Shown in pieces: positions 5,289-25,131 of a stretch of DNA of 27,512 bases. The notes below the pieces were generated by a model. The model worked only from the letters and a program-made list of their open reading frames with translations. It made no database searches and had not been told where the DNA came from. Both the position numbers and the translations under genes were made by a program. Position 1 is the first letter of the stretch; each line of letters opens with the position of its first letter. Source of the DNA: a virus; the UHGV virus genome UHGV-0040380; one strand, 5' to 3'.

Positions 5289-5311
5289 AAACAAGGCCGC
5301 GAAAGCGGCCT
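5286..5311 (-). terminator. Rho-independent terminator after the membrane-protein gene
   Basis: Stem AGGCCGC / GCGGCCT (5294-5300, 5305-5311) with GAAA loop; on the minus strand it is followed by TTGTTTTT (plus-strand A-tract 5286-5292). Confidence 0.6.
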
Positions 5312-5323
5312 GTGACATGTCAC
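5312..5323. repeat. 12-bp perfect palindrome GTGACATGTCAC (copy 1 of 3)
   Basis: Identical 12-mers at 5312-5323, 22855-22866 and 25120-25131; here it overlaps the TGA stop of the 5320-5616 gene and abuts the terminator hairpin. Confidence 0.6.
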
Positions 5324-5616: not shown

Positions 5617-5628
5617 GTAGTCACCTAT

Positions 5629-5802: not shown

Positions 5803-5811
5803 AACACTTCC

Positions 5812-8286: not shown

Positions 8287-8291
8287 TTAAT

Positions 8292-10094: not shown

Positions 10095-12604
10095 TGCGGA
10101 ATATCTCCGGAGAATCTCTGACGCTTCTGTGTCAGATCAAGAACAACAGGAGAACCATCATCCTTCAGCAGATATCCAGTCCCAAGTTTTACCAGGTACT
10201 GACTATCGCCGTAACTTTGCAAACCATACTGACCAGGCGGTGTTTTTATCCCGGTGCCGACAACTTGTTCATTCCAAGCCTGATTAACCTGCTTATCGAA
10301 TTGCTCTGCAGACATTCCCCACGGCAAAAGAACATTCCCCATTCCGTTATAGTCATGCACGCCACCTGTAGCTACGTTAACAGCCTGTTTCCAGATATCA
10401 TTGTCAATTTCGCCTGATACCACGCCTTTTTTCGCCATCACACCAGCGTAATAGTCCTTTGCGATCTCGTATGCCATTGATGCCCCATGAGCATCACCAG
10501 CAAATGCATCCTTCACCATGTCAGAAAACTCAAGGCGAAGATCAGCATCTTTAGGCATCGGAATACCTTTCGCATCATCAGTACCTTTACGAGCCGCCGC
10601 GCCAGCAAGAATTGTCTGCGCAGCGGTTTCAGGAGACACGGAAACATCCGGATTAAACCAGTTTTTTTCTGCCAAAATACCACCTGGCTTATCCATCAGT
10701 ATCCCGGCAACGGCAGCAGATGGAGCGTTGGCACTGATCTGCTGTAGTGCTGACATATACACCTGCCCACCACCAGTGCTCTGCCTGATGGTATCGAGAT
10801 ATGCTGCCTGTTGGGAAACGGGCGCATCACGAAAGAAAACACCGATCTGATTGGCCTCGTCTTTGGAAAAGAACGTCAGTGGAGTGCCATATGACTTAGC
10901 AAGGTCACTGACCTGAGCAGCACGCAAGGCAACGCTCTGTCCAAAGTTATCCTTATTGCTCATGTCGATAGGCTTTGCCTGTCCGGCGGCAAGAGAGAAC
11001 TGCACAGGATCCGATTGCCGCTGCTTTATCACCTGATTTGCAGCCGAAACAACGTTGTCATAAAGAGCTGCGCGTGCCGCATACCCCTCCCCTGTCTCAC
11101 CAGTATCCGGGCGTAATTGCTCAACATATGCTGTAATGCTGCTTGTCGGCATGTTGCGGAAAGAGCCTATATACTGTCCGGCGATCTGCGTATTCTTAAA
11201 CTCGGTATATCGCAGGTTTCCTTCTCTGACTCCATAAGCTGCAATAAAATCATCCTCACCAGGTGGGTTAGGAAATTCAACGCCACGCATATACGCAGCT
11301 GTCGCATCGCGAACCTGGCTGTCAATCATCGTTTTATATTCAGCCTGCTGCTGCCGACGCAGTTGATCTGCCTGTCGCATAAAACTTGCCTGCGCCTCAG
11401 GAGATGCAGCATCGAATGCTGCATTACCGGTATAGCGTTTGGTGTTGGTTGGAATTGTTGATAAACCAAGTGCTGCACTGACACCAGCAGTTAACTGCTG
11501 ATCACTGTATGGCTGGCTACCGTTCTCATGATGGATAATGGCTGCACAAAGCGCCTTCAGGGTATCAGGATTAGATGCATCGAGAGGCTCATCAGCAGAA
11601 ACGCCAAGTTGTTCGCACACTGCTTTGATATACGACATAGTGTCATTTTTATCAGTAGGCGGTGCCCAGCGATTAATTATCTCGCTGACGGTATCAATAC
11701 CCTGCCTCTGATACGACATCAGGTTTCGCCCTAATGCACGAATCCCGTGTTCAGGTGTTTCGAATTTAGCAAATCGACCATCATCACCGGTCTGGCCTAC
11801 CCACGGATTAGTTTTGCTGTATTCGAGATTTCCTGGGTTATTGTTGCGTATGCCACGGGCACGCTCGGAAGAGTCACTATCTGCTACAGCACGGCGAGCT
11901 CCAGCAGCAGTATCACTTAACTCGCCATTACTTTGGATGAATGCGGTCGCATTGTTTGCCGACCACTGGGACAATGCGGCATCAGCAACCTTCTCTTTAA
12001 ACTCGATTTTCTTGGCCTGTATTTGCTCGTCGCTCCAGCCATGCGCAACGCCGTAATCCTCAATTTGCTGGAAAGTTTGCTTATTAGCCAATACGTATGC
12101 GGCGTTGTCGCCATACAATGCTGCGGCATTTTTACCATTGTTCAGCAGCGTCGCCTGAAACTGGCCTTCTTCGTAGGCATTTATTTGCCCTATCTCGTGC
12201 CGCCCGGCCTGCGTAGTGAACTGAATACGCTGCTGCTGCGCCTGTTGCATGAAAGCATTACGAGCCTGTTCATCCGGCAGCGACATAGCCAGTTGTTCGA
12301 TCTGAGCATCAAACTGCTGCGTATACTCCTGACCTTTTCCAATAGCATTTTTCCCTTTCAGGTTAAGCAAACCTGTTTCAGGGTTATTCAACAGATCGCT
12401 GCTTATCTGGCTTAAGCTAAGAGAAGCATCCTGAGCCATAGCAACATTCGCACGCTGTTTTGCCTGCGCAACAATACCTGCATATTGCTCTGCAACATCG
12501 CCAAGTACATCACCGACATTTGGTGTCTGAAACGATGAGAATCCCTGAGTCGAAATCCCTCTGCTCTGAACCTGACGGCCCGATGTTGTTGGTACAACTG
12601 GCAT
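10091..12604 (-). CDS. Internal virion (core/ejection) protein, large
   Basis: About 837 aa from the ATG at 12604 (GGAGGA SD; the ATG overlaps the upstream TAA). The ORF-track start at 12679 would overlap the preceding gene by 76 nt. Contains a GIRNNNPGNLEY segment that I cannot assign to a domain. Confidence 0.55.
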   Translation of the reverse strand: MPVVPTTSGRQVQSRGISTQGFSSFQTPNVGDVLGDVAEQYAGIVAQAKQRANVAMAQDASLSLSQISSDLLNNPETGLLNLKGKNAIGKGQEYTQQFDAQIEQLAMSLPDEQARNAFMQQAQQQRIQFTTQAGRHEIGQINAYEEGQFQATLLNNGKNAAALYGDNAAYVLANKQTFQQIEDYGVAHGWSDEQIQAKKIEFKEKVADAALSQWSANNATAFIQSNGELSDTAAGARRAVADSDSSERARGIRNNNPGNLEYSKTNPWVGQTGDDGRFAKFETPEHGIRALGRNLMSYQRQGIDTVSEIINRWAPPTDKNDTMSYIKAVCEQLGVSADEPLDASNPDTLKALCAAIIHHENGSQPYSDQQLTAGVSAALGLSTIPTNTKRYTGNAAFDAASPEAQASFMRQADQLRRQQQAEYKTMIDSQVRDATAAYMRGVEFPNPPGEDDFIAAYGVREGNLRYTEFKNTQIAGQYIGSFRNMPTSSITAYVEQLRPDTGETGEGYAARAALYDNVVSAANQVIKQRQSDPVQFSLAAGQAKPIDMSNKDNFGQSVALRAAQVSDLAKSYGTPLTFFSKDEANQIGVFFRDAPVSQQAAYLDTIRQSTGGGQVYMSALQQISANAPSAAVAGILMDKPGGILAEKNWFNPDVSVSPETAAQTILAGAAARKGTDDAKGIPMPKDADLRLEFSDMVKDAFAGDAHGASMAYEIAKDYYAGVMAKKGVVSGEIDNDIWKQAVNVATGGVHDYNGMGNVLLPWGMSAEQFDKQVNQAWNEQVVGTGIKTPPGQYGLQSYGDSQYLVKLGTGYLLKDDGSPVVLDLTQKRQRFSGDIPQ

Positions 12605-13149
12605 TATAATCCTCCGGGTAATCTGGTTCCTGCTGCTGCCCCGATTGGCGCAGGAGTGCTTTGAGTAAACGGACTCCACGTCCCACCAAACATCTGGTAC
12701 GCACCGTATGCCTTCAGAGGCGCAGTGAGCAATGTTGTTGCTGCTCCCACATTCCCCTGTTTACGGGCTGAACTGGCTTCTGCTTTATAGTTGGCAGCCT
12801 GAACCTGATAACCGTAAGCCTCGCGTTGCGCGTTATTCACCGTCGTCAGCGAATCAAGAGCGCCAAACTGGGCAGTGTCGCCAAATATATCCAGCGCGTT
12901 ACCTGTAGATAAATCAGCGCCGGTAGCCCCCATTGTCGCCGCCTGTGTACCAAGCCGCTGTCGGGTCTCTCTGCGCCGTTGCTCAGCTTCAGCGTTACCT
13001 CTGTTTATTGCATCATTTGCCTGAGCTGTGGCTATATCTGCGTTCGCTTCTGCAACCTTCGAGGCATACTTTCCCTGTTGGTACTGGGTGTATGCCTGAA
13101 TGCCACTCATGGCGAGCATTGCGCCACCAGCAATAACCGGATCGCACAT
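12604..13149 (-). CDS. Internal virion protein (T7 gp14-like position), Ala/Gln-rich
   Basis: 181 aa; low-complexity A/Q/G-rich sequence; size and position match the small core protein that follows the tubular proteins in T7-type modules. Confidence 0.45.
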   Translation of the reverse strand: MCDPVIAGGAMLAMSGIQAYTQYQQGKYASKVAEANADIATAQANDAINRGNAEAEQRRRETRQRLGTQAATMGATGADLSTGNALDIFGDTAQFGALDSLTTVNNAQREAYGYQVQAANYKAEASSARKQGNVGAATTLLTAPLKAYGAYQMFGGTWSPFTQSTPAPIGAAAGTRLPGGL

Positions 13150-13616
13150 TATTTTCTCTCCATGTGAAATCTGTGGAAATTAAGACCAAGAGCACCATAA
13201 GGCGCGGCTTCTTCAAGCCTGAATCCAAGCCAGTGCAGCCATGCTTTGGCAACATGGTTTCGCTCGTCGACGTAGTTTTCCAGGCGCGGATAAACTGCCA
13301 GCATCAGCTGCAATACAGGGCGGCAGTGGCGAAGAAATGTCTTCTGATATTTTTCAATACGGCTGGTTCCGACCAGCCAGGGTGTACCATTGCCACCGAT
13401 CATTGACGCCGGAGATACACCAAACATGGTTACCAGTTCTCCGTTCGCGAACCCTGACCAGGCCATAGTCGCAGTGCGAAGACCAACACGCAGCGCATCT
13501 TCGGTAGTCATCAGTGATACCGCATACAGTTCGTCAATATCAGCCTGACGAACATCCGGCAAAATCATCTGAAGATGCTCTTCGGTAGCGGGAATAATTT
13601 GAACATCGATCATCAT
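13149..13616 (-). CDS. Virion-associated protein (T7 gp13-like position), unknown function
   Basis: 155 aa; translationally coupled between tubular protein B and the core proteins. Assigned by position only. Confidence 0.4.
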   Translation of the reverse strand: MMIDVQIIPATEEHLQMILPDVRQADIDELYAVSLMTTEDALRVGLRTATMAWSGFANGELVTMFGVSPASMIGGNGTPWLVGTSRIEKYQKTFLRHCRPVLQLMLAVYPRLENYVDERNHVAKAWLHWLGFRLEEAAPYGALGLNFHRFHMERK

Positions 13617-16084
13617 AATCCCCCAACAGTAAGGCGAGGAATAACGGCAAGAACAGACAGCGGCAACGGGTCAAGCTGACGGATTTTTACACGCCCGTTT
13701 TTGCCCCAGTTACTGTCCAGTTTCACTTCTACTTTTCCGGTAGCATCATCAACAGGATCATCGTAGAACTCGAATTCACGCTGTGGATATTCGTACCATT
13801 TACCGCCGGGCGTAGTCGCCCAGATGCCGCGACTGGCATTCACAACCAGAGTAACGGACGGGATCACCTGTTTTTTGTCCAGCAGCGTTTCCTGTCCGTT
13901 AATGTTGATATCCAGTGTTTCGAATTCAGCAGTTATTGGCAGGCCGATGTGCACTACAGCCCCCGGAGATTCCAGCGTGACGGTACCTCCGGAAACCACT
14001 TTCTGTGGTTCCACGTTCGCATCAGAGAGAATGTTTACGGTCTGGCCTTCAAGATGAGACAGGCCTCCAAATGTCCGGCGCGCCATCTGCCAGTTCGTGG
14101 TGGCCACATTCCTGAGGGATGATGGGACGTTCCTGTTAGGACGAACCACTACAGCGGTATTGCTGGTTACAGAAATAATGTCGCAACGTAATTCTTTTGA
14201 CACTTCATCGCCAGTATCAGGATCAGTTCCGGTATAAGGGAATTGTAGTTGCGCACCGACATCACTACTGGTGAAGTACGCACCACCAGAAATACTGATT
14301 GTATATTCCACGCGGTAATCCCATTCACCAGAACCACCAGTGATGGTCATCGTTCTGTCAGACGTATTTCTTCCATCATAGCTAAGGCCAGAATCAACAA
14401 AGAAAGCATCTTCATCGCTGGTAAATAAACGGCTGGACAGTCGCTCTATGTATCTCACTGTTTGCCCGTTAACGGTTCGGTTAACGACGAAATACACCGC
14501 ATCTTCATTGCCTTCGCTGATACTGCATGTGCTTTCATATTTCCCGGTACTGGATTGTGGTGCCCATGCAAAAACCTGCTGATCACGCAAATAGGTCATC
14601 ACCAGTAATTTACCGTCATCACGAATGCAGAAGGCGCTGGAGTAAGGGACAATAGAGAAGCACCAGTCAACAATGCTGTGCTTCTGAAAAAGATGATTGG
14701 CAAGGATGGTCAGGTCGTTCCCCTGATAGCCGTCAACATCGAATGAGTAGGCCAGATCACGGACAACACTGCCTTTCTCCTGGACGAACAGAGCAATATT
14801 CGCCACGGCAATTGGTGGGACATTGCTCGAGCCATTTGATCCCTGAGAGCTGAATGCAAATGATGATGGGGTTAACACTTTGTTCTGGTCGCCGGTGATG
14901 ACGTACTCACCTCCGGAAGTCAGTGCCACCAGCGAACCGACATCAATCAGGTGGCGGATCTCATTAACCTGACGCCCGGCATAGGTGTAGATAATTCTGT
15001 CGTCATCCTGCGTAGGATTGCTTTTGCCAAAATCCTTATAATCCCCAGTACGGCTGGCCCAGATAGTCTGAGGGAACGCTGTCGATGCGGCGAAGTAAAG
15101 ACGTTGTTGATAATAAACAACAGTGCCAGGATAACCGTTAACACTATTCCAGGCATATTTAGCCCATTTATAGCTGGCATTATCCTCGCCAACTACCTGC
15201 GAAGGGATATAGGAAATCACCTCAGCAGTTGCAGTAGTTCCATTTGCAGCAGAGATACGGGCAATGCCAAAACCACTGTGCAGATACTCCCACTCAATGC
15301 CAGTATCATCATCACCGGATCCGCCCCAGCCATCCCATGATGTGCCTTCTGTATGCGAAGGGCGCAAAGTACCTGTTTTGCCTGCTGTAACGGCGCGATA
15401 GTAGTTACTGTCTGCACGGCGAATATCGCCAATCGACGTACTCTTACTGGTTTCCCATACCGGCACAGAATCCACTGCAGGCTGTTCCAGATAGAACAAT
15501 TTGCCTACCTGCTCCGCGCCAAAAATAGAGGCGCTTGCCGTTAACGTAATTGTCCCGGTGCTGGCGCTGGCATAAACCGTCACTGACTCGTCAATATTGA
15601 TATCTTCAAATGGCCCGTTCTTCGTTACCACATCAACCAGTTGCCAGTTGTCATGCGCATAGCGGCGCAACTCTTTCGGCGGGTATGCCGGATGAACCAG
15701 CGTAAGCACGTCTGCGCTTTGCGTGAATTTAATTCGGAACAGATCGGCTTCAGTATATGGCGTGGCAATTTCATAAATAACATTGCTGCTGTTCAGCACC
15801 AACGCACCATCTTTGATAACGCGCATGTACTGGTGTCCGAACTCCAGAGCATAAGTCTGAACCGTCGAGAACTGGAACGGGATCAGGCGGCATTTCCGAT
15901 TTGGGTATTTGGCGGCACCGACAAAACGCGTACCAGGTCGATTCTCAACGCCGCCATACTGCCGCACGATAAAGTTATCGCACTTGCGCAATGCCACCTG
16001 GTACTTCGCCATGTCGATACGACCGTACAACGACGGTCCAATCTCACCACCGGCAAAGCTGGGCTGGATCCAACTGATAGCCAT
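13613..16084 (-). CDS. Tail tubular protein B (T7 gp12-like nozzle)
   Basis: 823 aa (T7 gp12 is about 794 aa); directly follows the gp11-like gene; N-terminal pattern (SW.QP.FAGGEIGP......R......) loosely resembles the gp12 N-terminus from memory. Confidence 0.5.
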   Translation of the reverse strand: MAISWIQPSFAGGEIGPSLYGRIDMAKYQVALRKCDNFIVRQYGGVENRPGTRFVGAAKYPNRKCRLIPFQFSTVQTYALEFGHQYMRVIKDGALVLNSSNVIYEIATPYTEADLFRIKFTQSADVLTLVHPAYPPKELRRYAHDNWQLVDVVTKNGPFEDINIDESVTVYASASTGTITLTASASIFGAEQVGKLFYLEQPAVDSVPVWETSKSTSIGDIRRADSNYYRAVTAGKTGTLRPSHTEGTSWDGWGGSGDDDTGIEWEYLHSGFGIARISAANGTTATAEVISYIPSQVVGEDNASYKWAKYAWNSVNGYPGTVVYYQQRLYFAASTAFPQTIWASRTGDYKDFGKSNPTQDDDRIIYTYAGRQVNEIRHLIDVGSLVALTSGGEYVITGDQNKVLTPSSFAFSSQGSNGSSNVPPIAVANIALFVQEKGSVVRDLAYSFDVDGYQGNDLTILANHLFQKHSIVDWCFSIVPYSSAFCIRDDGKLLVMTYLRDQQVFAWAPQSSTGKYESTCSISEGNEDAVYFVVNRTVNGQTVRYIERLSSRLFTSDEDAFFVDSGLSYDGRNTSDRTMTITGGSGEWDYRVEYTISISGGAYFTSSDVGAQLQFPYTGTDPDTGDEVSKELRCDIISVTSNTAVVVRPNRNVPSSLRNVATTNWQMARRTFGGLSHLEGQTVNILSDANVEPQKVVSGGTVTLESPGAVVHIGLPITAEFETLDININGQETLLDKKQVIPSVTLVVNASRGIWATTPGGKWYEYPQREFEFYDDPVDDATGKVEVKLDSNWGKNGRVKIRQLDPLPLSVLAVIPRLTVGGL

Positions 16085-16689
16085 CAGGACAACCTCGCAA
16101 TGGTAAACTCGTCAACCGGTGGCTGTGGTTCCTGTGATTCATTCTGGCTATGCGAGCCAGCACTAAGAATCACGCTATTGTACATATTGAGGGCAAACGT
16201 ACCGAGGTCTGCATTCCCAGTCAGCGCCATGTTAATAGCTGCCGCAAGACGCCAGGCTAACGCCTCCATAAAAATGGCATCAAACATGTTCACATCTGAA
16301 ACGCGAGAGACATACTTGAGCCATGCCTGAGGCTGGTCTGTGTAGATCAACTTTCCTGTTCCGTTGGTGTCTGCACCAACTTCGTACTGAACGCGCATTG
16401 ATGCTGTTGGATTGCGTACACCAGGAAGCATAATTTCAGTAATGCGCAGACAATCTGACGGGTATTGGTACGCATATTCCCAGTCAGGCGGTGGATTGCT
16501 CGTATCTGCAAGCGCCACGCGTTTGGTAGCAAAGTTCCAGTCAAAATCAGAAAGCACAGCATCACGGCAGGCCTCAAAGTGCAGCGAACATTCCCCCGCT
16601 TCCTTGCTGGCTTCCGTCAGGCTGTTAATGCTGCGGCTGTTGCCAATATTGGACAGCGCACGATTACAGATCTCTACTACAGAGGCCAT
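16084..16689 (-). CDS. Tail tubular protein A (T7 gp11-like adaptor)
   Basis: 201 aa (T7 gp11 is about 196 aa); N-terminus MASVVEICNRALSNIG resembles the gp11 start; immediately upstream of the gp12-like gene. Confidence 0.55.
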   Translation of the reverse strand: MASVVEICNRALSNIGNSRSINSLTEASKEAGECSLHFEACRDAVLSDFDWNFATKRVALADTSNPPPDWEYAYQYPSDCLRITEIMLPGVRNPTASMRVQYEVGADTNGTGKLIYTDQPQAWLKYVSRVSDVNMFDAIFMEALAWRLAAAINMALTGNADLGTFALNMYNSVILSAGSHSQNESQEPQPPVDEFTIARLS

Positions 16690-17012
16690 CGCTCACCTCC
16701 GTTACCGTACAGAGTTTCAGCCGCTGATTTTTCTACATCCCCGGAAACAGGAGCGATCGCCATATCAGTGATCTGCAGATCGGCGCTGCGATTAACGCCA
16801 TCGTCAGTTTCTCTGGCAGACAGGCCTCGAATAACAGCCTTTGCAGTTATCATCACTTCTGTTCCGACGCCCTTAGGTTGCGCCTTCAGCTTATTCAATG
16901 TGTCGTTATTCAGCGTGATGCACAGCCCCCACGGGTATTCATCGCGAGTTCTGGTTTCTCCGCTCTCATCCTGGTAGCTGTCAGTGCCGGTTTTGAGGTT
17001 TACGAGTTCCAT
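16677..17012 (-). CDS. Hypothetical virion-module protein
   Basis: About 111 aa from the ATG at 17012 (GGAG 5 nt upstream); overlaps the tubular A start; no recognisable motif. Confidence 0.4.
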   Translation of the reverse strand: MELVNLKTGTDSYQDESGETRTRDEYPWGLCITLNNDTLNKLKAQPKGVGTEVMITAKAVIRGLSARETDDGVNRSADLQITDMAIAPVSGDVEKSAAETLYGNGGERWPL

Positions 17013-17024
17013 ATACACTCCTGC

Positions 17025-17046
17025 AATAAAGGGGCCGAAGCCCCTT
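17025..17046 (-). terminator. Rho-independent terminator downstream of the capsid gene block (T7 T-phi-like position)
   Basis: Stem GGGGC / GCCCC (17031-17035, 17040-17044) with a 4-nt loop; minus-strand T-tract TTTATT follows (plus-strand A-tract 17025-17030); 18 nt after the stop of the 17063-17407 gene and directly before the next RBS. Confidence 0.55.
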
Positions 17047-17062
17047 GTCTGATCCGCGAGGC

Positions 17063-17407
17063 TTACACGCCCAGTTCTTTACGCTTATCTGCGATCTTCT
17101 CGCGGAGCGTTTCGGCTTTGGCGTTATGGTGTGGCTTCTCGTTAAAGAGCAATTCGTACTCTTCACGGAGCTTATCCAGTTCACCATCATCTGACACATC
17201 GTTGATGATTTTGGTGCTGGTTGCTGCCATTGACACCTTTCCTGCAACTTTTGCTTTTGCCTGTCTGGCTGCATCGTTAACAGGTTCCAGTGCGCTACCA
17301 GGCTCACCTTCGTATTCGATTTCTGCCCCCTCCGGCCACAGAGTGTTATGGATATGAGAGAGGCGCAGAACGCGGTATCTTGGTTTCTCACCTGACATCG
17401 ATATCAC
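17063..17407 (-). CDS. Hypothetical protein, capsid-proximal
   Basis: 114 aa, acidic, coiled-coil-like C-terminus; between capsid and terminator. Confidence 0.4.
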   Translation of the reverse strand: MISMSGEKPRYRVLRLSHIHNTLWPEGAEIEYEGEPGSALEPVNDAARQAKAKVAGKVSMAATSTKIINDVSDDGELDKLREEYELLFNEKPHHNAKAETLREKIADKRKELGV

Positions 17408-17408: not shown

Positions 17409-17846
17409 TTAACCAGTTACTTTTGAGCGGATCGGGTACGGCGTATTGGCATCAACATCAAGACTGATACCAGCAGTGAATTCGCCAGCCGTTAGTGGGC
17501 CAGTTGCGACGGAGTAGTTAACACGCAGATATCGCTGAACACCGGCAGGCACCTTTGCAGAAACAACTCGTTTACCTGCTGTCAGGGCGGTCTTTGCCAG
17601 TGCGCCACTATCATAAATAGTGGTCCATGAGCTGTTATTCTCACTCGTCTGCAACTGGATGTTTACAGTTGCATCACCGCTTGCCGCGGCGGCTGTGTTA
17701 ACCAGCGCCCAAAACTCAAGCGGGTAACCAACGCCGATATCACGACGTTTTCCGTCAATTGGACCGAGATCGATTACGTCAGTAGAAGCCGCGGTATTCG
17801 TAACCGCCTGTGCTTCGGAGAACATCAACAGTTTGTCGGTGATCAT
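17409..17846 (-). CDS. Hypothetical capsid-associated protein (possible decoration or minor capsid protein)
   Basis: 145 aa, Ala/Thr/Val-rich and beta-rich in character; immediately downstream of the major capsid gene and upstream of the terminator. Function inferred from position only. Confidence 0.4.
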   Translation of the reverse strand: MITDKLLMFSEAQAVTNTAASTDVIDLGPIDGKRRDIGVGYPLEFWALVNTAAAASGDATVNIQLQTSENNSSWTTIYDSGALAKTALTAGKRVVSAKVPAGVQRYLRVNYSVATGPLTAGEFTAGISLDVDANTPYPIRSKVTG

Positions 17847-17897
17847 CTTCTTTCTCCATTAGTGGGTCTGTTACGACCCACAGGTTAATAACAGGCG

Positions 17898-18884
17898 TTA
17901 CACCACGCGGGCTTCTGTTTCCAGAAGCGCATCAGTTTCACGGATTGGTACACCACGGAATGACGTCCACCACTCGCCTTCAGTCTCTTTTACGCTAATC
18001 GCCAGAGATGTTTTCTCCAGAGACTGCAGATCAAGAGCCTGGCCTACAGTGCGGTTCATGTAGAACACCGGGCGGCCCATGCCACGGTTTGGAATGCGAT
18101 GCAGTGCTTTAACCATCAACTTCGCAATATTTGCGGCAGAGGAAGGTTCTGAAAGATTGCTGACATCGATGTTTGCAATGCGAACAACATAACGCCAGTC
18201 ACGCAGAGCAAGTCCGTTGTCCCATTTGTAATGGGTACGGTAGCCTTCGTACTTGCCGCCATTAGCATCTTCCAGTGTCACCTGGCCTTTATCTTCCATC
18301 TGGATGCCAGCCTTCTGCCCTTTCGGGAAGATGCCATGCACGGTGTTTTCGCCCCACACCACTAACCAGATTGAGGTGTTATCTGTACCCGTGCCACCAG
18401 CATCAATGATGTTCTGAGCATTACCCGCAGACAGGCTGGAATAGCGGGAGGACAGTCCCATAAACTGCTGAGGGTTAACGCTGGAGTCACCATAAAACAG
18501 CGTCTGCGCCATCTGCTGATTCATCGCTTCAATAAATGCGCGGTCTTCAGACAGGCGGAATTCGGCGGTATTACCGTTCAGATCAGCCAGTGACTTATCG
18601 ACTTCAGCATAGGTTTCCAGCATGCCAACGGAGTCGGTGACCTGCACTGTGGTTGATTTGCTTGGCTGTACGCCATAGTTCAGCAAACGCCAGGTGGCTG
18701 AAGGTAAACCAGAACGAATGGTGGTTCGGTGTCCGGTAGGAAGGTTCCCTTCGACAAAAGGCATATCCTGAAGGATCGGGTTAGTTTGACCGAGAAGCTC
18801 GATAATCTTATCGACTTTCCCGTTTAGATCGACGCGCTTACCCCAGTCAGCCAGCGTTAGCGCAGTTAAGCCTTTAACAGACAT
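17898..18884 (-). CDS. Major capsid protein
   Basis: 328 aa; follows the scaffold gene; size and position match a T7 gp10 / HK97-fold coat protein. Confidence 0.65.
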   Translation of the reverse strand: MSVKGLTALTLADWGKRVDLNGKVDKIIELLGQTNPILQDMPFVEGNLPTGHRTTIRSGLPSATWRLLNYGVQPSKSTTVQVTDSVGMLETYAEVDKSLADLNGNTAEFRLSEDRAFIEAMNQQMAQTLFYGDSSVNPQQFMGLSSRYSSLSAGNAQNIIDAGGTGTDNTSIWLVVWGENTVHGIFPKGQKAGIQMEDKGQVTLEDANGGKYEGYRTHYKWDNGLALRDWRYVVRIANIDVSNLSEPSSAANIAKLMVKALHRIPNRGMGRPVFYMNRTVGQALDLQSLEKTSLAISVKETEGEWWTSFRGVPIRETDALLETEARVV

Positions 18885-18898
18885 TGTTATTTCCTCTC

Positions 18899-19594
18899 TT
18901 ATTTGCCATAGAGCACTTCGGCCGCACTACGCTGGCCTTCATTACCACCGGTGACCATGCCATCTTCAGACATCGCCTTTCCGATTTTCACGAACGTTTT
19001 GACCAGATCAGGGTGATTACCCAGCCCGGTGGTGTTCAGATATTCTTTGAGTTCAGGTGTCCCGAACTGGTCAAGCGCACGCTGTGCGGCGCTAAGGTTA
19101 GAAATCAACTTGTCGCCACCGATTTCTTTGTCAGCTTTTACATCCGCAGCCCACTGCTCGGTTGTTTTCTGCCAGGCTTCTGCCTGGCGCTGCTGAACAC
19201 CTGCCAGAATCTTCGGATAAGCATCAACCAGCTTTTGCGCTTGCTCGTTGGTCAGGTTAAGTTCTCGCGCCACCGGCTCGAATTCCTTCAACGCTTCTGT
19301 ATCCAGCTCTACGCCTTCGGCAGCCTGAAACTCGTACTTCTCAGGAGCACCCTCTGGTTTATCGCCGTTCTTTTTTTCACCCTGCTTATCGTTTTCAGGC
19401 TTTTTGTCATCAGCAGGTTTATCGCCATCAGCAACAGGTTGTGGCTTATCACCTTCCTGTTGTGATGGATCACCAACTGGAGCAGGGTTATCACCTGCAT
19501 GCGCTGACGGTTCTGACGCAGCCGGAGCTGCCCCGCCATCGGCTGGCTGCTCATTGCAAAGACGGCGATACAGCAAACGCTCAAATAAATTCAT
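18899..19594 (-). CDS. Scaffolding protein
   Basis: About 231 aa from the ATG at 19594 (GGAG 5 nt upstream); very acidic, Pro/Lys/Asp/Glu-rich N-terminal half and helical C-terminal half; between portal and capsid. Confidence 0.6.
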   Translation of the reverse strand: MNLFERLLYRRLCNEQPADGGAAPAASEPSAHAGDNPAPVGDPSQQEGDKPQPVADGDKPADDKKPENDKQGEKKNGDKPEGAPEKYEFQAAEGVELDTEALKEFEPVARELNLTNEQAQKLVDAYPKILAGVQQRQAEAWQKTTEQWAADVKADKEIGGDKLISNLSAAQRALDQFGTPELKEYLNTTGLGNHPDLVKTFVKIGKAMSEDGMVTGGNEGQRSAAEVLYGK

Positions 19595-19596
19595 GA

Positions 19597-21570
19597 TCAC
19601 TCCTGTTCACTGGCCTCTTTGGCCATCTTCAAATACTGTTCAGGGCAATGAGCCATAACGCGCTGAAACAGTTCCAGCGCCAGATTGCGTTGCCCCTCAT
19701 TAAATGCCATTGCCATAGCGTCCATCGGTGAGATAGCGGAAAACACACGGCCTTTCTCCAGCACCGACCAGACAACGCGACGCCCCTGTTCACTGCTCAT
19801 GACAAAGCGAATGTCATCAATTTCACGCTTCGCCATGTCACGTTGCTTACGGGCGTTTTCTTCTTTCAGTTGATCGTCTTCGTAATCTGTCATTGTGATT
19901 GCCCCCCCCTGACCACTAACTGCATTCGCCATAGCTGACAAAACACTCGGATCCGAAGTTTTAGCTTCGCTTAGCGTCTTGGCACCCTGTGCCGCCGCCA
20001 TCCCCATCGCCATCATTTGTTGCTGCTGTTGCTGCTGTGCCCGTTGCTGGCGAGCCTGCTCAACCTGTTCCTGCGGAACAATAACGGTTGGAGACACTCC
20101 GGACATATCAGCGAATGCATCGATCGCCTGATCAACGTTGAGTTTGTCGAGAGCTTCTGGTTTCGCTTGCGCAAGTTGACCAATGAAGTTAACCGTGGAC
20201 GCCAGACTGGACAGGCCGATAGACTTCTGCGCCTGAGCCATGACGGAAATGTATTCGACCTTCAGGGGCATGCCTTCCATCGCGTCAGGCGGTGGCGGCA
20301 GCATGTTTTTACGCACCATCATCGAGAAAGCGCGGTCAATGAGAGGATTAAGACATTCGTCGTTCAGACGCTCCAGAACCGGCCCCAACATCAGAAGTTT
20401 TTCTTCTTTCATTTCGATCACCGCTTCAACAGGCATCGAGCGGGTATTGATGTTCTGCAACATCATGAACAGATCGACAAAGTAGGCGCTGTTAATGATT
20501 TGACGAGTGTCCTGAATGTCTGCCACCAAATCTGCTGTACTGGGGTTAACCAGATAAGCAGGCCTGAAGCCATCCTGACCAGTAATCTGATCGATATACG
20601 TGATGTCGCCAGGAAGAAGGGAGGCTCGCTGATTCTTGAGGGAAGTCGGAGCAACCATCGGCGGATTGGTGGCTTTATCAATCAACTGCGACTTGCGCTT
20701 CTGGAGAAGCTGCAATGCCTTAACAGGTCCAAGAGCCAGCATACCCGGGCATGATGATCCATAAACATCTTCGCCGTTAACTTCCCAGCGCGGAGCCATA
20801 ATTGGAAACTCATCGAATCCGGACTCACGCAACAACTTGTCGTTATCGCCACCAACCTCGTAATAAACCGATTTGAATGGCTTGTTCTTGCTATCCAGCT
20901 TCGATGTATCGCGGTCAATGTTCGGGTAAACCGAGTGCATCACTTCAATCCACTTCTCGTAGGTGCCGCTTTCCCACATGCTTTTTACGTATTCGCTGAC
21001 GTTATTTAGCCCGAACTCCTGAACAAGCTGACGAACAGTCATAGAGAACTTGCGAAAACAGGTGTCCACACTGCCACGAGGTGAGTTAGCCAGGTAGTAA
21101 CTGCCTATCGGGAATGGCATTGTGCGAATAATGTCCTCGTCATCCTCCAGCACCGCCATTGCACCAGTGCTGTATGTTCCGAGGCTTCCGTATAACTGCG
21201 GCAGCGACTGATAGAGATTCGACTTATTGAACATATCGTTCATGCGGTTCTGCACCGCCTCAAGCCACAACTTAACAGGGCCATAATCCATCATTTCAGG
21301 ATCTGGCGTAGCCAGACGAAACCACGGACGCGCGGGGCTTGTGATGCCTGACATCATGCCGCTGGCGAGAGTGCGCGCCGCCATAGTCCCGGTCGAATCA
21401 ATAATGCGTGTATTCCGTCGATCGTTACGATTGACCTCAGAAGTCAGAAAGCGGGAACCACGCGGGTTGATGTAATCACTCAACTCGCGCCAGTGCGGCT
21501 CGAACGACTGACGCTCGCTTTCAAGTTGTGCGAACTGTTTGTTCAATCGCTCTTTAGTTGTTTCCGCCAT
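19597..21570 (-). CDS. Portal (head-to-tail connector) protein, T7 gp8-like, with a C-terminal extension
   Basis: 657 aa; contains a Q-rich ...QQQQQQQMMAMGMAAAQG segment resembling the T7 gp8 C-terminal region (from memory), followed by about 100 extra residues; precedes scaffold and capsid. Confidence 0.8.
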   Translation of the reverse strand: MAETTKERLNKQFAQLESERQSFEPHWRELSDYINPRGSRFLTSEVNRNDRRNTRIIDSTGTMAARTLASGMMSGITSPARPWFRLATPDPEMMDYGPVKLWLEAVQNRMNDMFNKSNLYQSLPQLYGSLGTYSTGAMAVLEDDEDIIRTMPFPIGSYYLANSPRGSVDTCFRKFSMTVRQLVQEFGLNNVSEYVKSMWESGTYEKWIEVMHSVYPNIDRDTSKLDSKNKPFKSVYYEVGGDNDKLLRESGFDEFPIMAPRWEVNGEDVYGSSCPGMLALGPVKALQLLQKRKSQLIDKATNPPMVAPTSLKNQRASLLPGDITYIDQITGQDGFRPAYLVNPSTADLVADIQDTRQIINSAYFVDLFMMLQNINTRSMPVEAVIEMKEEKLLMLGPVLERLNDECLNPLIDRAFSMMVRKNMLPPPPDAMEGMPLKVEYISVMAQAQKSIGLSSLASTVNFIGQLAQAKPEALDKLNVDQAIDAFADMSGVSPTVIVPQEQVEQARQQRAQQQQQQQMMAMGMAAAQGAKTLSEAKTSDPSVLSAMANAVSGQGGAITMTDYEDDQLKEENARKQRDMAKREIDDIRFVMSSEQGRRVVWSVLEKGRVFSAISPMDAMAMAFNEGQRNLALELFQRVMAHCPEQYLKMAKEASEQE

Positions 21571-21584
21571 TTCAATGACTCCGG

Positions 21585-21791
21585 TTACTGACCAAGCAGC
21601 GTTTTACCGCTGGTATTAGCGGTTGATGTGTCGCCCTGAGAACCGGTAAGCAGCGTAGAACTACGACCAGCAGCAGCGCGACGGCGACGTGTTTCTTCGT
21701 CGCGGGCATCAACAACGGCGGCATCCTGCTCCTGTGGTGCTGCCTGAACTTCTGGTGTTGCAGGCACTGATGGTGAGCTACCCATGCACAT
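21585..21791 (-). CDS. Small low-complexity protein upstream of portal
   Basis: 68 aa, A/T/S/R-rich; ATG with GGAG about 10 nt upstream; ends 14 nt before the portal start. A competing overlapping frame (21572-21811) has a TTG start and no SD. Confidence 0.35.
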   Translation of the reverse strand: MCMGSSPSVPATPEVQAAPQEQDAAVVDARDEETRRRRAAAGRSSTLLTGSQGDTSTANTSGKTLLGQ

Positions 21792-21881
21792 ATCAATGAC
21801 TCCGTACGCAATTAAATTATTACCAATTTAACCACATATGATTTATTTATCGTAGACAGTTGACATTTAACGCACGAATTA

Positions 21882-21896
21882 TTACCTTTCAGGTAA
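21882..21896. promoter_or_regulatory. Operator-like 15-bp dyad TTACCTTTCAGGTAA (copy 3, perfect)
   Basis: Perfect inverted repeat TTACCT-ttc-AGGTAA; a consensus -35 hexamer TTGACA lies 16 bp upstream (21860-21865) on the plus strand, the strand that carries the tRNA. Confidence 0.4.
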
Positions 21897-22218
21897 CCAA
21901 AGAGTTCATTCCGGTTACTAACCTGACTGGCTTGTCGTTAAATTGAACTGGTGGAGTGAGCTTTTATTTTGAGCAGTACGGCGTATGGCACATGCGCCGA
22001 TAGCGGTCTGGATACGTTTAAGGGGCACCCTCCCTTGCTCGGGCAAACGAACCAGGTAGCCGGAATGTGCAAGTCGAGCGGTTTTATTCCGCGCACGGGG
22101 ATTCACCATCCCGGCGATTCGGTGTGACGCCTCGGAAGAGACGAGGGTACAACGATGAGAGCATTTATGGAGCCGCGACAAAGTGTGGTGCCTTAACAGG
22201 CTAAGTGCTCTCAGCGTT

Positions 22219-22295
22219 GTGGCATTAGCTCAGTCGGACAGAGCAACCGCCTTCTAAGCGGTTGGTCGCAGGTTCGAATCCTGCATGCCACGCCA
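22219..22295 (+). tRNA. tRNA-Arg (anticodon UCU, reads AGA/AGG), phage-encoded
   Basis: Cloverleaf folded by hand: acceptor GTGGCAT / ATGCCAC, D-stem GCTC / GAGC, anticodon stem ACCGC / GCGGT with loop CTTCTAA, T-arm GCAGG-TTCGAAT-CCTGC, discriminator G plus encoded CCA. Resembles E. coli argU but has a different acceptor stem. Confidence 0.9.
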
Positions 22296-22338
22296 GAATC
22301 ACGCCTAAGGACCGTGATGCCAGAAGTTCCAGGTGCTT

Positions 22339-22381
22339 GGCGGTGATGGTTTCCCTTGAAGGACTATCACCGCCCTTTTTA
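22339..22381 (+). terminator. Rho-independent terminator downstream of the tRNA
   Basis: 9-bp stem GGCGGTGAT / ATCACCGCC (22339-22347, 22366-22374) followed by CTTTTTA. Confidence 0.55.
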
Positions 22382-22458
22382 CAGCAGGACGCCATTGCGA
22401 TGACTTCATGCTGTAAACCCGTACAGCCACGGAAGGCATAACTCATTGCTTCCAGTTC

Positions 22459-22482
22459 GCCCGGTTCGCCGGGCATTTTTTT
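22459..22482 (+). terminator. Strong rho-independent terminator 1 nt upstream of the RBS of the 22494 gene
   Basis: Stem GCCCGG / CCGGGC with TTCG tetraloop (22459-22474), then A plus TTTTTTT (22476-22482); the SD AAGGTGAG starts at 22483. Confidence 0.65.
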
Positions 22483-22493
22483 AAGGTGAGATT

Positions 22494-22850
22494 ATGAACG
22501 ACCAGCAAATCGAAAAAGAAATCGTTGAGAAAGGCAAAACCGCTCCGCGAGTTACGCCTCAATATATCGAAAGCATCATTCTTGAAGAGCATTTCTTTAC
22601 TGCTTATGACGGCATTCGTGCTGCCAATATGGGCGTTGGCGATTCATGGACAGCGCATAAATCTACAGACCTCCTGACTTTCTGCGTACTGGTGCTGAAG
22701 AATGGCTTCACCGTCACCGGAGAAAGCGCCTGTGCAAGCCCGGAAAACTTTGATGCAGAAATTGGTCGGAAGATTGCCCGGCAGAATGCTGTAAACAAAA
22801 TCTGGATGCTCGAAGGTTACTTGCTGAAGCAGAAGCTAAGCGAGCAATAA
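22494..22850 (+). CDS. Hypothetical protein (118 aa), moron in opposite orientation to the late genes
   Basis: ATG with AAGGTGAG SD; no signal peptide or TM segment; not recognised by me; bracketed by intrinsic terminators on both sides. Confidence 0.6.
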   Translation: MNDQQIEKEIVEKGKTAPRVTPQYIESIILEEHFFTAYDGIRAANMGVGDSWTAHKSTDLLTFCVLVLKNGFTVTGESACASPENFDAEIGRKIARQNAVNKIWMLEGYLLKQKLSEQ

Positions 22851-22854
22851 CACC

Positions 22855-22866
22855 GTGACATGTCAC
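22855..22866. repeat. 12-bp perfect palindrome GTGACATGTCAC (copy 2 of 3)
   Basis: Lies 5 nt after the stop of the 22494-22850 gene and 4 nt before the terminator stem. Confidence 0.6.
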
Positions 22867-22870
22867 AAAC

Positions 22871-22897
22871 AGCCAGCCTATGAGCTGGCTTTGTTTT
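22871..22897. terminator. Convergent (bidirectional) terminator between the 118-aa gene (+) and terL (-)
   Basis: Stem AGCCAGC / GCTGGCT (22871-22877, 22884-22890) with 6-nt loop, followed by TTGTTTT on the plus strand and GTTTGTG on the minus strand. Confidence 0.6.
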
Positions 22898-22940
22898 ATC
22901 CTCACCAGAGGATATCAACGACATTATCCCCACCAGCGGA

Positions 22941-24416
22941 TTAAGCATAGGGATCGTAATCTGTGATGGCCTTGCCTTGCTGGTTCTGCTGACCGGGAAT
23001 TCGCAGACGCTTCGACACAGGGAACGCAAACGTCAGCAGTAGCGCATCGCCTTTACCAGGAGAACGCCCAAGTCGCTCTTTGATATCTTCCTTCGGTTCG
23101 ATAACGATTTTACCGTCCACTCGAACTTTGTACTCTGCTGCCGACAGGTCGTCCGCTGTTTCCTGGTCATCAAGCATGCCGCCCAGCCTCAGCCATGTCT
23201 TGCATGAGTTGAACATCTCCCCACGCTTGTTGAGCATCTGCGGGTCAGTAGACGCGCCACCGAACTGAACAAGTTGCCATGTACGACCCCAGCCGTCACC
23301 GATTGACTTCAGACCAGTTCCGTAACCGAAGTCGATGAACACTGCGTCAGCCTGGTACTGGTCTTCAAAGTCAGCGATACGCTTCGCCATAATCAGATCG
23401 TCAGTGGTCTTGTTGCCGGTCCACAGCACCTTACTATGCAGCCCCTGCCGCAGGTATATCACAGCGTCATCAACACCGGAGTATGCCGGGTCAACGCCGA
23501 TTATCACCGGAGCATGTGCAACCTGCGCAGCGGTTACCACCCGTTTCATTGCCTCGTCAGTAAGGCCGGTAGGGATAAACTGCAATTCAGATGCATCCGG
23601 GAATATGCCGCGCACACGGATTTTAACGAAGTCGCTGTCTTCCCCGTAGTCATCAACCCATTTCTGCAACTGCTGTTTGTTAGTGCCTTCCACCGTCCGG
23701 CTGTCAATCTGCGCAGTTTTCCAGCGGTGTTTATATTTGCGGAAACATTCGCGAAAACGCCCGGTGTTACGTGTAGGGTTTCCGAACGCCACCCAGATAA
23801 TCTCAGTGTCTTCGTCCGTAAGCGCACCCTCGGCAACTTCCCACACCAGATCCGCAATGTTCGACGCTTCATCAAACACCACGATGATGCGTTTGCGCTC
23901 GTTGTGTAGTCCGGCGAATGCCTCGGTGTTGTGCTCAGACCAGGGGATTGCGTCAGCTCGCCACCGCTTGTCGTGCCCAGGATCATTGCTGTACATCGCG
24001 GTAGCGGTACAGGTAAACCAGTCTTTCGTGATAGCAAGGTTTGACCACTTGATAATTTCCGGCCAGGTCTTCGTTCGTAGCTGGTTGTCGGTGTTGGCGG
24101 TCACCACGACCTTACAATCCTCGCAAGTGGACATGCCCCAGTTGATCAGCATTGAGATGAATGCGGATTTACCAATACCGTGACCAGAAGCACGTGCCAG
24201 CATAAGCGGCTGATAACGCGTCTCTGGATTCTGCAGGTGATCACGTATCTCTCGGAACGCATCGGCCTGCCACTGACGTGGGCCGGTGGCATGTGCCAGT
24301 TCAGTCCCCTCTTCCCCCCACGGGAACGCATAGAGGGCATAGCCAAGCGGATCGTGAGTGAACCCTGCAATATCCTCGATTAACTGCTCTTCAGGAGATA
24401 ACGCTGTATCTGTCAC
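22941..24416 (-). CDS. terL: Terminase large subunit
   Basis: 491 aa; Walker A-like GHGIGKS, Walker B-like IIVVFDEAS, C-terminal nuclease-like region (IIGVDPAYSG, DAVFIDFGYG); start overlaps the terS stop. Confidence 0.9.
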   Translation of the reverse strand: MTDTALSPEEQLIEDIAGFTHDPLGYALYAFPWGEEGTELAHATGPRQWQADAFREIRDHLQNPETRYQPLMLARASGHGIGKSAFISMLINWGMSTCEDCKVVVTANTDNQLRTKTWPEIIKWSNLAITKDWFTCTATAMYSNDPGHDKRWRADAIPWSEHNTEAFAGLHNERKRIIVVFDEASNIADLVWEVAEGALTDEDTEIIWVAFGNPTRNTGRFRECFRKYKHRWKTAQIDSRTVEGTNKQQLQKWVDDYGEDSDFVKIRVRGIFPDASELQFIPTGLTDEAMKRVVTAAQVAHAPVIIGVDPAYSGVDDAVIYLRQGLHSKVLWTGNKTTDDLIMAKRIADFEDQYQADAVFIDFGYGTGLKSIGDGWGRTWQLVQFGGASTDPQMLNKRGEMFNSCKTWLRLGGMLDDQETADDLSAAEYKVRVDGKIVIEPKEDIKERLGRSPGKGDALLLTFAFPVSKRLRIPGQQNQQGKAITDYDPYA

Positions 24417-25009
24417 TGATTACTATCCTGACGTTCTTTGAGTCGCTTCCTGGCTGCTGCTATGCGATCAGCAATTGTCACATTCACATTAACATCCAGA
24501 CGTTCTTTGAACGCGTTGACATCAACATGCTTACCAATCAGCTCAAGGTTCTTCACCTTGTCAGGCCATTTAATTTTTTTGAGGATTGTCTCTATCGAAT
24601 CCTCGTTCATGTTCATGATGGTCGATGACAGATCAAAGCCACTAAGCGTAGTGCGCCAGATTTTCGGCCACTCGCGGATTGGCTTAAGGCTCCCATCGTC
24701 GTTGAGGATGTCGATCACGTCCATCTGGTCGATCTCCACCAGGCGCATGAGAACGTAATCAGCACTGACGCGCATTCGTTTGTTGCGCTCCTCCATCAAC
24801 TCGGCAATCCGTTTTTGAATGCGTTCATCGCGCATCATGACACTGGCTTTAACTGCCGCTGTATTTGGGGAGAATCCTGCGTTAATCGCTGCCTGAGTCT
24901 GGTTTTCAGGCGTTTTGATGTATGACTGGCAATAAGCCTCCTGCATTGCTGTGAGCGGCTTAAATTGCGTTGATTTGCGTTTATAGGTTTTAGGTTCAGC
25001 AGGCATCAT
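24413..25009 (-). CDS. terS: Terminase small subunit
   Basis: About 198 aa from the ATG at 25009 (GGTGG SD); terminase small-subunit-type N-terminal HTH region (QTQAAINAGFSPNTAAVKAS). The ORF-track TTG start at 25087 would run through a terminator hairpin and direct repeats. Confidence 0.8.
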   Translation of the reverse strand: MMPAEPKTYKRKSTQFKPLTAMQEAYCQSYIKTPENQTQAAINAGFSPNTAAVKASVMMRDERIQKRIAELMEERNKRMRVSADYVLMRLVEIDQMDVIDILNDDGSLKPIREWPKIWRTTLSGFDLSSTIMNMNEDSIETILKKIKWPDKVKNLELIGKHVDVNAFKERLDVNVNVTIADRIAAARKRLKERQDSNQ

Positions 25010-25017
25010 AACCACCG

Positions 25018-25046
25018 TGGTAATAGTTACCGTTGTGGTAATAGTA
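25018..25046. repeat. Tandem direct repeats GTGGTAATAGT x2 (7-bp spacer) in the terS leader
   Basis: Identical 11-mers at 25018-25028 and 25036-25046, between the upstream terminator and the terS RBS. Confidence 0.5.
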
Positions 25047-25078: not shown

Positions 25079-25119
25079 AGTATTCAAAGTCCATCAAATT
25101 CATCATGCATAATCTACTC

Positions 25120-25131
25120 GTGACATGTCAC
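25120..25131. repeat. 12-bp perfect palindrome GTGACATGTCAC (copy 3 of 3)
   Basis: Overlaps the TGA stop of the 25128-25469 gene, as copy 1 does for the 5320-5616 gene. Confidence 0.6.

Follow-up and report, generated by a model that had tools for sequence, protein, structure and literature searches.

A conserved pseudoknotted RNA beside the tRNA-Arg(UCU) gene of an epsilon15-like phage recurs in unrelated phages

In the 27,512 nucleotides of the virus genome UHGV-0040380 (the window from here on) a tRNA-Arg(UCU) gene is preceded by a gap, 21897-22218, that lacks a credible open reading frame (ORF). We report that this gap encodes an RNA core of about 170 nt with helices P1 to P5 and one pseudoknot, which together with an adjoining hairpin, P6, measures about 240 nt. 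Core and P6 constitute a new RNA family of established structure in a very well-studied system. The core is an independent module that is also found 3' of the repressor gene cI in lambdoid phages, apparently in the leader of the early-left promoter pL, and upstream of ban in phage P1. Sequence comparison established its conservation, secondary structure, strand and modular spread, and the layout of promoter-like region, terminators and ORF around it. As to function, we tentatively rank first a cis-acting leader by which RNA polymerase would read through two terminators ahead of the gene at 22494-22850, with a probability of about 0.35.

Structure of the core and of P6

The core and its parts, all on the plus strand, are:

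21977-22149: conserved RNA core (covariance model R1, 149.7 bits; pair counts)
21979-21986 with 21992-21999: helix P1, loop GGCAC (hand-drawn structure)
22004-22011 and 22052-22062: closing strands of helix P2, with a 3-nt bulge UAG at 22057-22059 and a branched tip (hand-drawn structure)
22055-22073: near-invariant 19-mer GGTAGCCGGAATGTGCAAG (alignment)
22078-22081 with 22089-22092: helix P3 (hand-drawn structure)
22098-22102 with 22108-22112: helix P4 (hand-drawn structure)
22104-22107 with 22121-22124: pseudoknot between the P4 loop, CACC, and GGTG (covariation)
22130-22134 with 22142-22146: helix P5, loop GAAGAGA (hand-drawn structure)
22150-22219: hairpin P6, CAACGATGAGAGCA ... TGCTCTCAGCGTTG (folding of 36 distinct sequences)

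Three hairpins singled out by an initial annotation of this DNA proved to be real parts of the structure: CCTCG-GAAGAGA-CGAGG is P5 (22130-22146), GGGAT-TCACC-ATCCC is P4 (22098-22112) and TTGC-TCGG-GCAA is a tip hairpin of P2.

The hand-drawn structure was tested on an alignment of 40 diverse cores (A3), with the 3' partners slid by 1 to 3 columns and 500 shuffles as controls. Standard base pairs occupied 95.4% of the cells compared to 27.7-38.1% with slid partners, and none of the 500 shuffles matched the observed pairing values. Changes on both sides were seen in 14 pairs, amounting to 107 cells, and this covariation backs helix P1, the inner parts of P2, P4, P5 and the pseudoknot, in which a C-G pair is replaced by A-U in four sequences. 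Thus the covariation check on homologous regions that the initial annotation had suggested revealed compensatory changes with the helices kept. The pair U8-G18 is G-U in 39 of the 40 sequences. Because G-U pairs are frequent on the plus strand and would be A-C mismatches on the other, the RNA is one of the plus strand, i.e. of the strand of the tRNA. A 266-nt stretch folded better than its own shuffles with z = -2.4. Covariance model R1 scored true copies at 110-160 bits and detected a single copy in the window.

A second scan, anchored on the pseudoknot region and independent of the 19-mer, found GGTAGCCGGAATGTGCAAG exactly preserved in 129 of 143 copies. Two features drawn or considered at first were discarded. 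At the base of P2 the register U31-G92 was contradicted by the variants L197, L243 and L190, which favor U31-G89 with a bulge of 3-4 nt. A second pseudoknot between the loop of helix P1 (GCAC) and GUGC in the 19-mer was invariant in A3 and broken in two of three variants from the second scan (L196, L218).

P6 had the same closing stem, with compensatory changes, in all 36 distinct sequences folded, while its tips ranged from 49 to 138 nt. In the window its terminal G (22219) is nucleotide 1 of tRNA-Arg. P6 may be a processing module for RNase III or RNase P. A sharp module boundary lies between ...CGTTG and TGG. In one locus (L104, about 3700-3780) the P6 tip looks like the T-arm and the 3' acceptor strand of a tRNA (GAAAGGTTCGATTCCTTTCCCGCACCCAC), which may represent a tRNA-like insert.

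The gap is not a gene. As stated in the initial annotation, the longest ORF starting with ATG on the plus strand of 21897-22218 has 24 codons. A coding signal is absent; the region also holds a TTG ORF of 52 aa and, on the minus strand, one of 87 aa. A decayed or small protein-coding gene, e.g. that minus-strand ORF (21918-22181), might be invoked since minus-strand ORFs do exist here, and copies elsewhere are covered by a 122-aa hypothetical coding sequence, mEp460_037, or by one of several 'hypothetical protein' annotations. Yet core lengths modulo 3 were 2, 1 and 0 in 19, 13 and 8 of the 40 sequences, so that the length differences are not multiples of three; variable columns were spread evenly over the codon positions (28/26/24); the variation is compensatory within helices; and most records, like the Prokaryotic Genome Annotation Pipeline (PGAP), annotate nothing there. 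We rejected the coding reading, the minus-strand ORF included, on the evidence of codon positions, lengths and compensation, and consider it extremely improbable. Three options had initially been offered for the gap. Covariation and layout support a structured non-coding RNA (ncRNA) that shares a transcript with the tRNA; a decayed gene disagrees with the lack of codon periodicity, the indels that are not multiples of three and the retained helices; and a mere tRNA leader is too narrow a description, as some two thirds of the copies lack an adjacent tRNA.

Distribution and genomic contexts

The blastn query 21960-22225 matched 83 phage records, to which the following conservation counts refer. 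Across unrelated phages the block was 70-100% identical. About 245 nt were shared at 82-84% identity with the lambdoids cdtI, mEp460, 2H10, Ayreon and Stx2c phages, and the first 165 nt or so at 77-81% with P1, P7, D6, SJ46 and RCS47. Phages of Klebsiella, Enterobacter and Salmonella, and one that was deposited as a Stenotrophomonas phage, have more distant copies. Further carriers of the core were found in a Klebsiella Lastavirus, in lambdoids of the SfV/mEp460 type and in prophages of many Enterobacterales. It is carried by 1840 of 5426 complete E. coli genomes without any PGAP annotation underneath, save for the tRNA in window-type copies. The exact 19-mer was present in at least 120 IMG/VR contigs, with 108 distinct copies among the matches listed.

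The search of GTDB species genomes required an exact 17-mer and its taxonomic range is therefore a lower bound. It returned 54 loci, of which R1 confirmed 23 as real. All except one of these belong to Enterobacterales (Citrobacter, Klebsiella, Enterobacter, Kosakonia, Kluyvera, Phytobacter, Buttiauxella, Erwinia dacicola and others); the remaining one is a 1.75-kb contig from a metagenome-assembled genome labelled Bacillota. The 17-mer matches in Bacteroides, Chloroflexota, archaea and others had no support by R1 and were dismissed as chance.

In mEp460, cdtI, the Stx2c phages, mEp390 and BUCT708 the core lies immediately 3' of a cI-like repressor gene on the same strand. The lambdoid copies come after the cI terminator and a candidate pL and before a terminator that precedes the first ORF. 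Inspection of mEp460 by eye showed the cI terminator, the two operator-like repeats TTGCATATCTCGCAA and TTGCATAATGCGCAA, and TTGCAT-17-TATCTT as a candidate promoter ahead of the core, which apparently heads the early-left (pL) transcript. In phage P1 the unannotated core starts 15 nt after tRNA-Ile (trnI) and precedes ban within the C1-controlled ban operon.

A tRNA adjoins the core on the same strand in 44 of 130 copies. In 27 of the 130 it is a tRNA-Arg(tct) that begins exactly at the end of P6; in 17 it is a tRNA(cat) about 15 nt upstream of the core as in phage P1. Downstream genes, where present, are co-oriented with the core.

Layout of the transcription unit in the window

The window represents the structural half of a podophage similar to phiV10 and epsilon15, genus Uetakevirus. 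Its positions 21800-22500 were 98-99% identical to phiV10, TL-2011b, HEMP4, the O157 typing phages 9 and 10 and others. Around the core it contains:

19597-21570, minus strand: portal gene (gene call)
21860-21896, plus strand: promoter-like region with dyad (sequence reading and promoter scan)
21925-21972, plus strand: apparent remnant (3' half) of another P6-type hairpin, GCTTGTCGTTAAATTGAACTGGTGGAGTGAGCTTTTATTTTGAG (by-eye reading)
22219-22295, plus strand: tRNA-Arg(UCU) with encoded CCA end (ARAGORN, Rfam)
22339-22380, plus strand: intrinsic terminator-like hairpin T1, a 14-bp stem followed by CTTTTT (terminator scan)
22459-22482, plus strand: intrinsic terminator-like hairpin T2, GCCCGG-TTCG-CCGGGC followed by ATTTTTTT (sequence and terminator scan)
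22494-22850, plus strand: accessory ('cargo') gene, 118 aa, family Phage_gp49_66 (PF13876; Pfam E = 1.7e-34)
22871-22890: further terminator-like hairpin (terminator scan)
22941-24416, minus strand: terL (gene call)

The TTGACA and dyad region at about 21860-21896 described initially was recovered, with TTGACA as a -35 element at 21860-21865 and TACCTT at 21883-21888 as a candidate -10. The dyad TTACCTTTCAGGTAA (TTACC-N5-GGTAA, 21882-21896) overlaps the -10/+1 region of the promoter-like site. The sole promoter-like site returned here by the promoter scan was 21853-21882, and alternative boxes are TAGACA at 21853 and AATTAT at 21877. The arrangement TTGACA-N14-TATTACC..GGTAA also stands upstream of the element in L068 and in the epsilon15-like phage VB_ST_E15. 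From these features we infer that 21860-21896 acts as a promoter.

The dyad TTACC-N5-GGTAA occurs five times in the window (4591-4605, 4971-4985, 21882-21896, 25009-25023 and 25027-25041) against an expectation of 0.42. The first two copies flank a small plus-strand ORF (listed as 4559-4939, with a likely ATG at 4683), and the adjacent last two lie between a terminator and the start of terS. The five dyads are probably binding sites for one phage regulator or a pac-related signal.

The stretch 21925-21972 resembles, by eye, the 3' half of P6 in L077 and BUCT708 and also a stretch 5' of the core in other copies of the Uetakevirus type. It has the look of a scar left by recombination ahead of the core.

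T1 is kept in related loci and T2 in L068 and VB_ST_E15. Delimited more narrowly, T1 spans 22339-22374 and T2 22459-22474. About 12 nt separate the end of the T-run of T2 from the ATG at 22494. The promoter scan detected no promoter-like site from T1 to this start codon. By this sequence evidence the ORF 22494-22850 would be transcribable only by read-through. In related phages the cargo slot is filled by other genes (Tad2-like, membrane or coiled-coil proteins) or is empty. A tiny ORF, M(H/K)DEFDG(L/F)*, adjoining the palindrome GTGACATGTCAC is located upstream of terS in the window (25085-25130, minus strand). In L068 (5320-5365) it comes after T2, at the place of the missing cargo gene, and in VB_ST_E15 (L244, about 2330-2360) the C-terminus of the cargo ORF is made up of similar words.

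Comparison with known RNAs

An Rfam scan of the whole window at gathering thresholds returned the tRNA as the sole match and thus confirmed it without assigning the gap to a family. With Rfam 15 the plus strand of 21897-22218 matched nothing even at E <= 10; on the minus strand two weak matches to eukaryotic families appeared at the 5' edge of this interval (E = 2 and 7.9). The mEp460 copy had no Rfam match at E <= 1. In the literature searched we found neither the conserved sequence words of the core nor any description of the core RNA.

The put RNAs of phage HK022 suppress pausing and termination by binding to the zinc-binding domain of the RNA polymerase beta' subunit. putL and putR are cis-acting antiterminator RNAs of about 73 nt with two stem-loops (PMC9378689). 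We located putL via the stem motif AGACG...CGTCT quoted there (L006, minus strand, about 8311-8240). Lambdoid core and putL occupy the same relative place, in the order cI, RNA, intrinsic terminator, next or early genes, and an N-like protein is encoded beside neither. The window copy, with promoter, core, tRNA, T1, T2 and ORF in succession, is likewise located in cis as put is, and the function that we propose for the core would be that of put. On the other hand, the core RNA has 170-240 nt, at least six helices and a pseudoknot; put is present in both the left and the right operon while the core occupies one place per phage record; and the core is also found outside lambdoids and beside tRNAs. 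Neither R1 nor an nhmmer profile produced a significant match in 20.7 kb of HK022 that include putL. One nhmmer match in HK022, ACGGTGTGACACCTGG, falls within the nun coding sequence and was rejected as chance.

A similarity to the nut sites of lambda was considered as well. P5, with its 5-bp stem and the loop GAAGAGA, resembles boxB, GCCCU-GAAGA-AGGGC. GGTGTGA of the core is similar to boxC, the 3' strand of P6 (TGCTCTC/TGCTCTTT) to boxA, and P6 as a whole to the RNase III hairpin of the lambda pL leader. Both nut sites and, apparently, the lambdoid core reside in the early-left operon leader. However, the order of the motifs differs, and the boxC-like and boxA-like stretches of core and P6 are base-paired with covariation. 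The first ORFs after the leader, in mEp460 a yfdP-like gene without a Pfam match and a DUF2303 gene, did not include an N protein or an N-like protein. Phage P1 and Uetakeviruses are not known to use N.

GOLLD, ROOL and the stable RNAs 'species 1 and 2' of T4 are structured phage RNAs whose genes adjoin those of tRNAs and which are probably processed along with the tRNAs. The core shares with GOLLD and ROOL that it is phage-borne, structured, of unassigned function and located beside tRNA genes. It differs by being far smaller, by the lack of an Rfam match and by the position of most copies in early-operon leaders instead of tRNA clusters. The reference of the initial annotation to such large RNAs thus holds as an analogy, and not as membership in a known family.

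Small RNAs of the STnc100/PasD type are prophage-encoded, usually near the gene of the Q antiterminator (bioRxiv 10.64898/2026.05.13.724894). Core and window sequence are without an STnc100 match, and the likeness is limited to a neighboring module in phage ST64B. There (L188, 2156-2274) the only relevant Rfam match of the leader at E <= 1, a sub-threshold one to STnc100 (RF02076; 35.1 bits, gathering threshold 47, E = 7.5e-6), begins exactly at the boundary between ...GTTG and TGGTGAATG that follows the P6-like hairpin of the early-left leader.

A self-processing ribozyme or a dedicated processing module, which would cut the early transcript into leader, tRNA and downstream mRNA, would be in accord with a compact core with many invariant junction nucleotides and a pseudoknot, and with the sharp module boundaries. 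Phage intergenic positions beside tRNAs with unrelated flanks are typical of self-cleaving ribozymes. Known ribozyme families, however, did not match the core in Rfam at E <= 10, the core is much larger than most self-cleavers, and a cleavage-site signature was not recognizable in the sequence. We regard this explanation as improbable.

The same low rank is given to a riboswitch or attenuator, in which the core would serve as an aptamer, with a small molecule or a tRNA as its ligand, and control the downstream terminators. A conserved core with variable peripheral helices in a 5' leader, terminators downstream, a size similar to that of T-box leaders and the vicinity of rare-codon tRNAs speak for it. 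Contrary to this idea, the genes downstream are unrelated (ban, gp49/66, Tad2-like, DUF2303 or none), so that there is no consistent gene association and some copies have no gene to regulate. An alternative pairing between core and terminators was not evident; the terminators are 120-250 nt further on, and in the window they are separated from the core by P6 and the whole tRNA. No Rfam riboswitch family matched.

A cis-acting leader or a trans-acting RNA

For the cis-acting leader we envisage the following course. Transcription of the plus strand would start at the dyad-controlled promoter at about 21860-21896 and produce a short unit of core, P6, tRNA-Arg(UCU), T1, T2 and the accessory gene 22494-22850. 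Cleavage by RNase P at the 5' end of the tRNA (22218/22219) would at the same time create the 3' end of the structured RNA. The folded nascent core would act on the very polymerase that made it, and the modified polymerase would then pass the intrinsic terminators that lie on the way to the downstream genes. HK022 put does the same job, which here would fall to an unrelated and much larger structure. Transcription from this promoter, the processing and any effect on termination are inferred. The place shared with HK022 putL, the strong terminators ahead of co-oriented genes and the lack of an N-like gene behind the core speak for this reading. The variety of downstream genes (gp49/66, Tad2-like, DUF2303, ban) agrees better with a general expression device than with a regulator of one gene.

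A terminator-like site was present within 760 nt downstream in 72 of 95 distinct copies, and in 46 of the 95 an ORF starts within 70 nt after such a site. The terminator finder was home-made and permissive, with high controls, and only strong, individually inspected terminators serve as evidence. The statistics, moderately above controls, are weak evidence.

Several observations argue against the cis-acting leader. The enrichment of terminators is moderate, as the 76% downstream of the core compare to 59% when the other strand of that DNA is scanned and to 38% within genes farther along. In phage P1 the core stands in mid-operon, and the scan found no terminator between it and ban. L068 retains promoter, core, P6, T1 and T2 without any downstream gene. 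Conversely, VB_ST_E15 has lost most of the core, and T2 and the cargo gene are still there. SfV and ST64B share the pre-ORF terminator and the first genes with mEp460 but do not have the core, which is consequently not required for that operon. These variants and the terminator statistics fit a self-contained RNA at least equally well.

Such an RNA would be a stable, trans-acting phage ncRNA that is itself the product and is excised from early transcripts by processing. The cuts may be made by RNase P at tRNA-Arg, by 3' processing of tRNA-Ile in phage P1 and by RNase III or E at P6. A conserved host factor would then be bound by the invariant, pseudoknotted core, much as with 6S RNA, Y RNA or other ribonucleoprotein (RNP) RNAs, or the core would serve as a decoy in takeover or anti-defence. 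The copies adjoining a tRNA on the same strand agree with this, as other phage stable RNAs cluster with tRNAs likewise. The L068 unit without a gene, the context in phage P1 and the optional nature of the core in otherwise identical lambdoid leaders point in the same direction. In SopranoGao -35/-10 boxes, identified by eye, would put the transcript start 3-5 nt before helix P1 and after two terminators. The near-invariance of the 19-mer is what would be expected of a binding surface, and helix P1 at the 5' end and P6 at the 3' end would protect a processed RNA. On the other side, the neighborhoods inspected have no protein in common as a candidate partner; the phage P1 copies are without P6 and hence without an obvious protected 3' end; and the expression of the ORF 22494-22850 behind two terminators is left unexplained. 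We hold a trans-acting RNA to be possible, with considerable doubt.

The two readings fit the data about equally well. We rank the cis-acting leader slightly first because it also explains the expression of the ORF behind T1 and T2.

Natural variants and modular leaders

In VB_ST_E15 (L244, 2841-2911, minus strand) the deletion takes most of the core, P6 and tRNA-Arg. Its junction lies at the word TTCCCTTGATGCT, which is present in L068 in both the P2 tip and the loop of T1. This suggests that the deletion arose between two TTCCCTTGATGCT repeats. A TCCCTTG-like word is also found in the P2 tip and the T1 loop of the window.

In SfV and ST64B a different conserved leader motif of 65 nt directly follows pL, and both phages possess a P6-like hairpin although the core is missing. 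The motif has the form AACAGGCAGGACGCCCACGAAGTAGCCGCC-NGG-NGGCATANGAA...CCGGATGATTCG, and its second stem is compensated (CCGGU/ACCGG compared to CCUGG/CCAGG). It is located at 1807-1868 of L188 (ST64B) and 1536-1597 of L187 (SfV) and was also seen, with or without the core, in L092, L132, L156, L172, L098, L025, L135, L181 and L182; motif and core are thus present together at several loci. The motif had no Rfam match at E <= 1 and was not found in HK022. Taken together, the presence or absence of the core, the 65-nt motif and the P6-like hairpins indicate that early leaders in these phages are built of interchangeable RNA modules, of which the core is one.

Hairpins of the P5 type recur three to four times by a strict count, and more often by eye, in some early-left leaders, on the plus strand only. 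They have a GC-rich stem and the loop GGAAAGAC or GAAGAGA and resemble lambda boxB. Examples are L009 (BUCT708, 2370-3060), L010, L037, L075, L042, L097 and L099. From their form these hairpins may be sites for an RNA-binding protein.

The tRNA-Arg and codon usage

ARAGORN predicted a single tRNA in the window, tRNA-Arg with the anticodon tct, which Rfam assigned to the tRNA family (RF00005) with 73.3 bits at a gathering threshold of 29. Together with the gene calls this agrees with the initial description of a complete tRNA-Arg(UCU), 22219-22295, that runs opposite to portal and terL. Compared to E. coli argU, 63 of 77 positions are identical, and the acceptor stem (GUGGCAU) and the anticodon stem differ. 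The tRNA thus looks phage-borne, as had been noted from its acceptor stem.

AGA and AGG together account for 9.9 per 1000 codons and 16.7% of the Arg codons in the genes of the window. This is about three times the E. coli average, and it answers the comparison of AGA/AGG usage that had been recommended. The two codons cluster in the tail and ejection genes (187-17391), and head genes hardly use them. ATA, too, is common in the tail and ejection genes and rare in the genes for capsid, portal and terminase (17409-24416). The contrast points to a different origin or expression level of the two halves of the structural module. A supply of phage-borne tRNA-Arg(UCU) for late genes is plausible. With 21800-22500 as query, megablast returned 65 Synechococcus phage records as well, and we assumed that these matches lie over tRNA-Arg.

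Significance

An RNA with strong covariation and a pseudoknot, yet without an Rfam family or PGAP annotation, has gone unnoticed in a third of the sequenced E. coli genomes and thus in the best-annotated phage-host system. A stretch of 19 nt in it is near-invariant across P1-like, lambdoid, epsilon15-like and Klebsiella phages. The spurious 'hypothetical protein' calls over the element merit removal. We put forward, with low confidence, that the core represents a new class of functional RNAs acting via a conserved host machine, either as a second and structurally unrelated type of RNA that makes E. coli RNA polymerase terminator-resistant or as a new ribozyme or RNP RNA used by temperate phages, P1 included, within minutes of the onset of lytic growth. 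Should the core act on RNA polymerase, put would no longer be the sole phage RNA known for this job; the second one would have a different fold and provide a new handle on the control of elongation by nascent RNA. Should it act in trans, phages would have a new RNP or decoy, perhaps linked to the accessory and anti-defence genes downstream.

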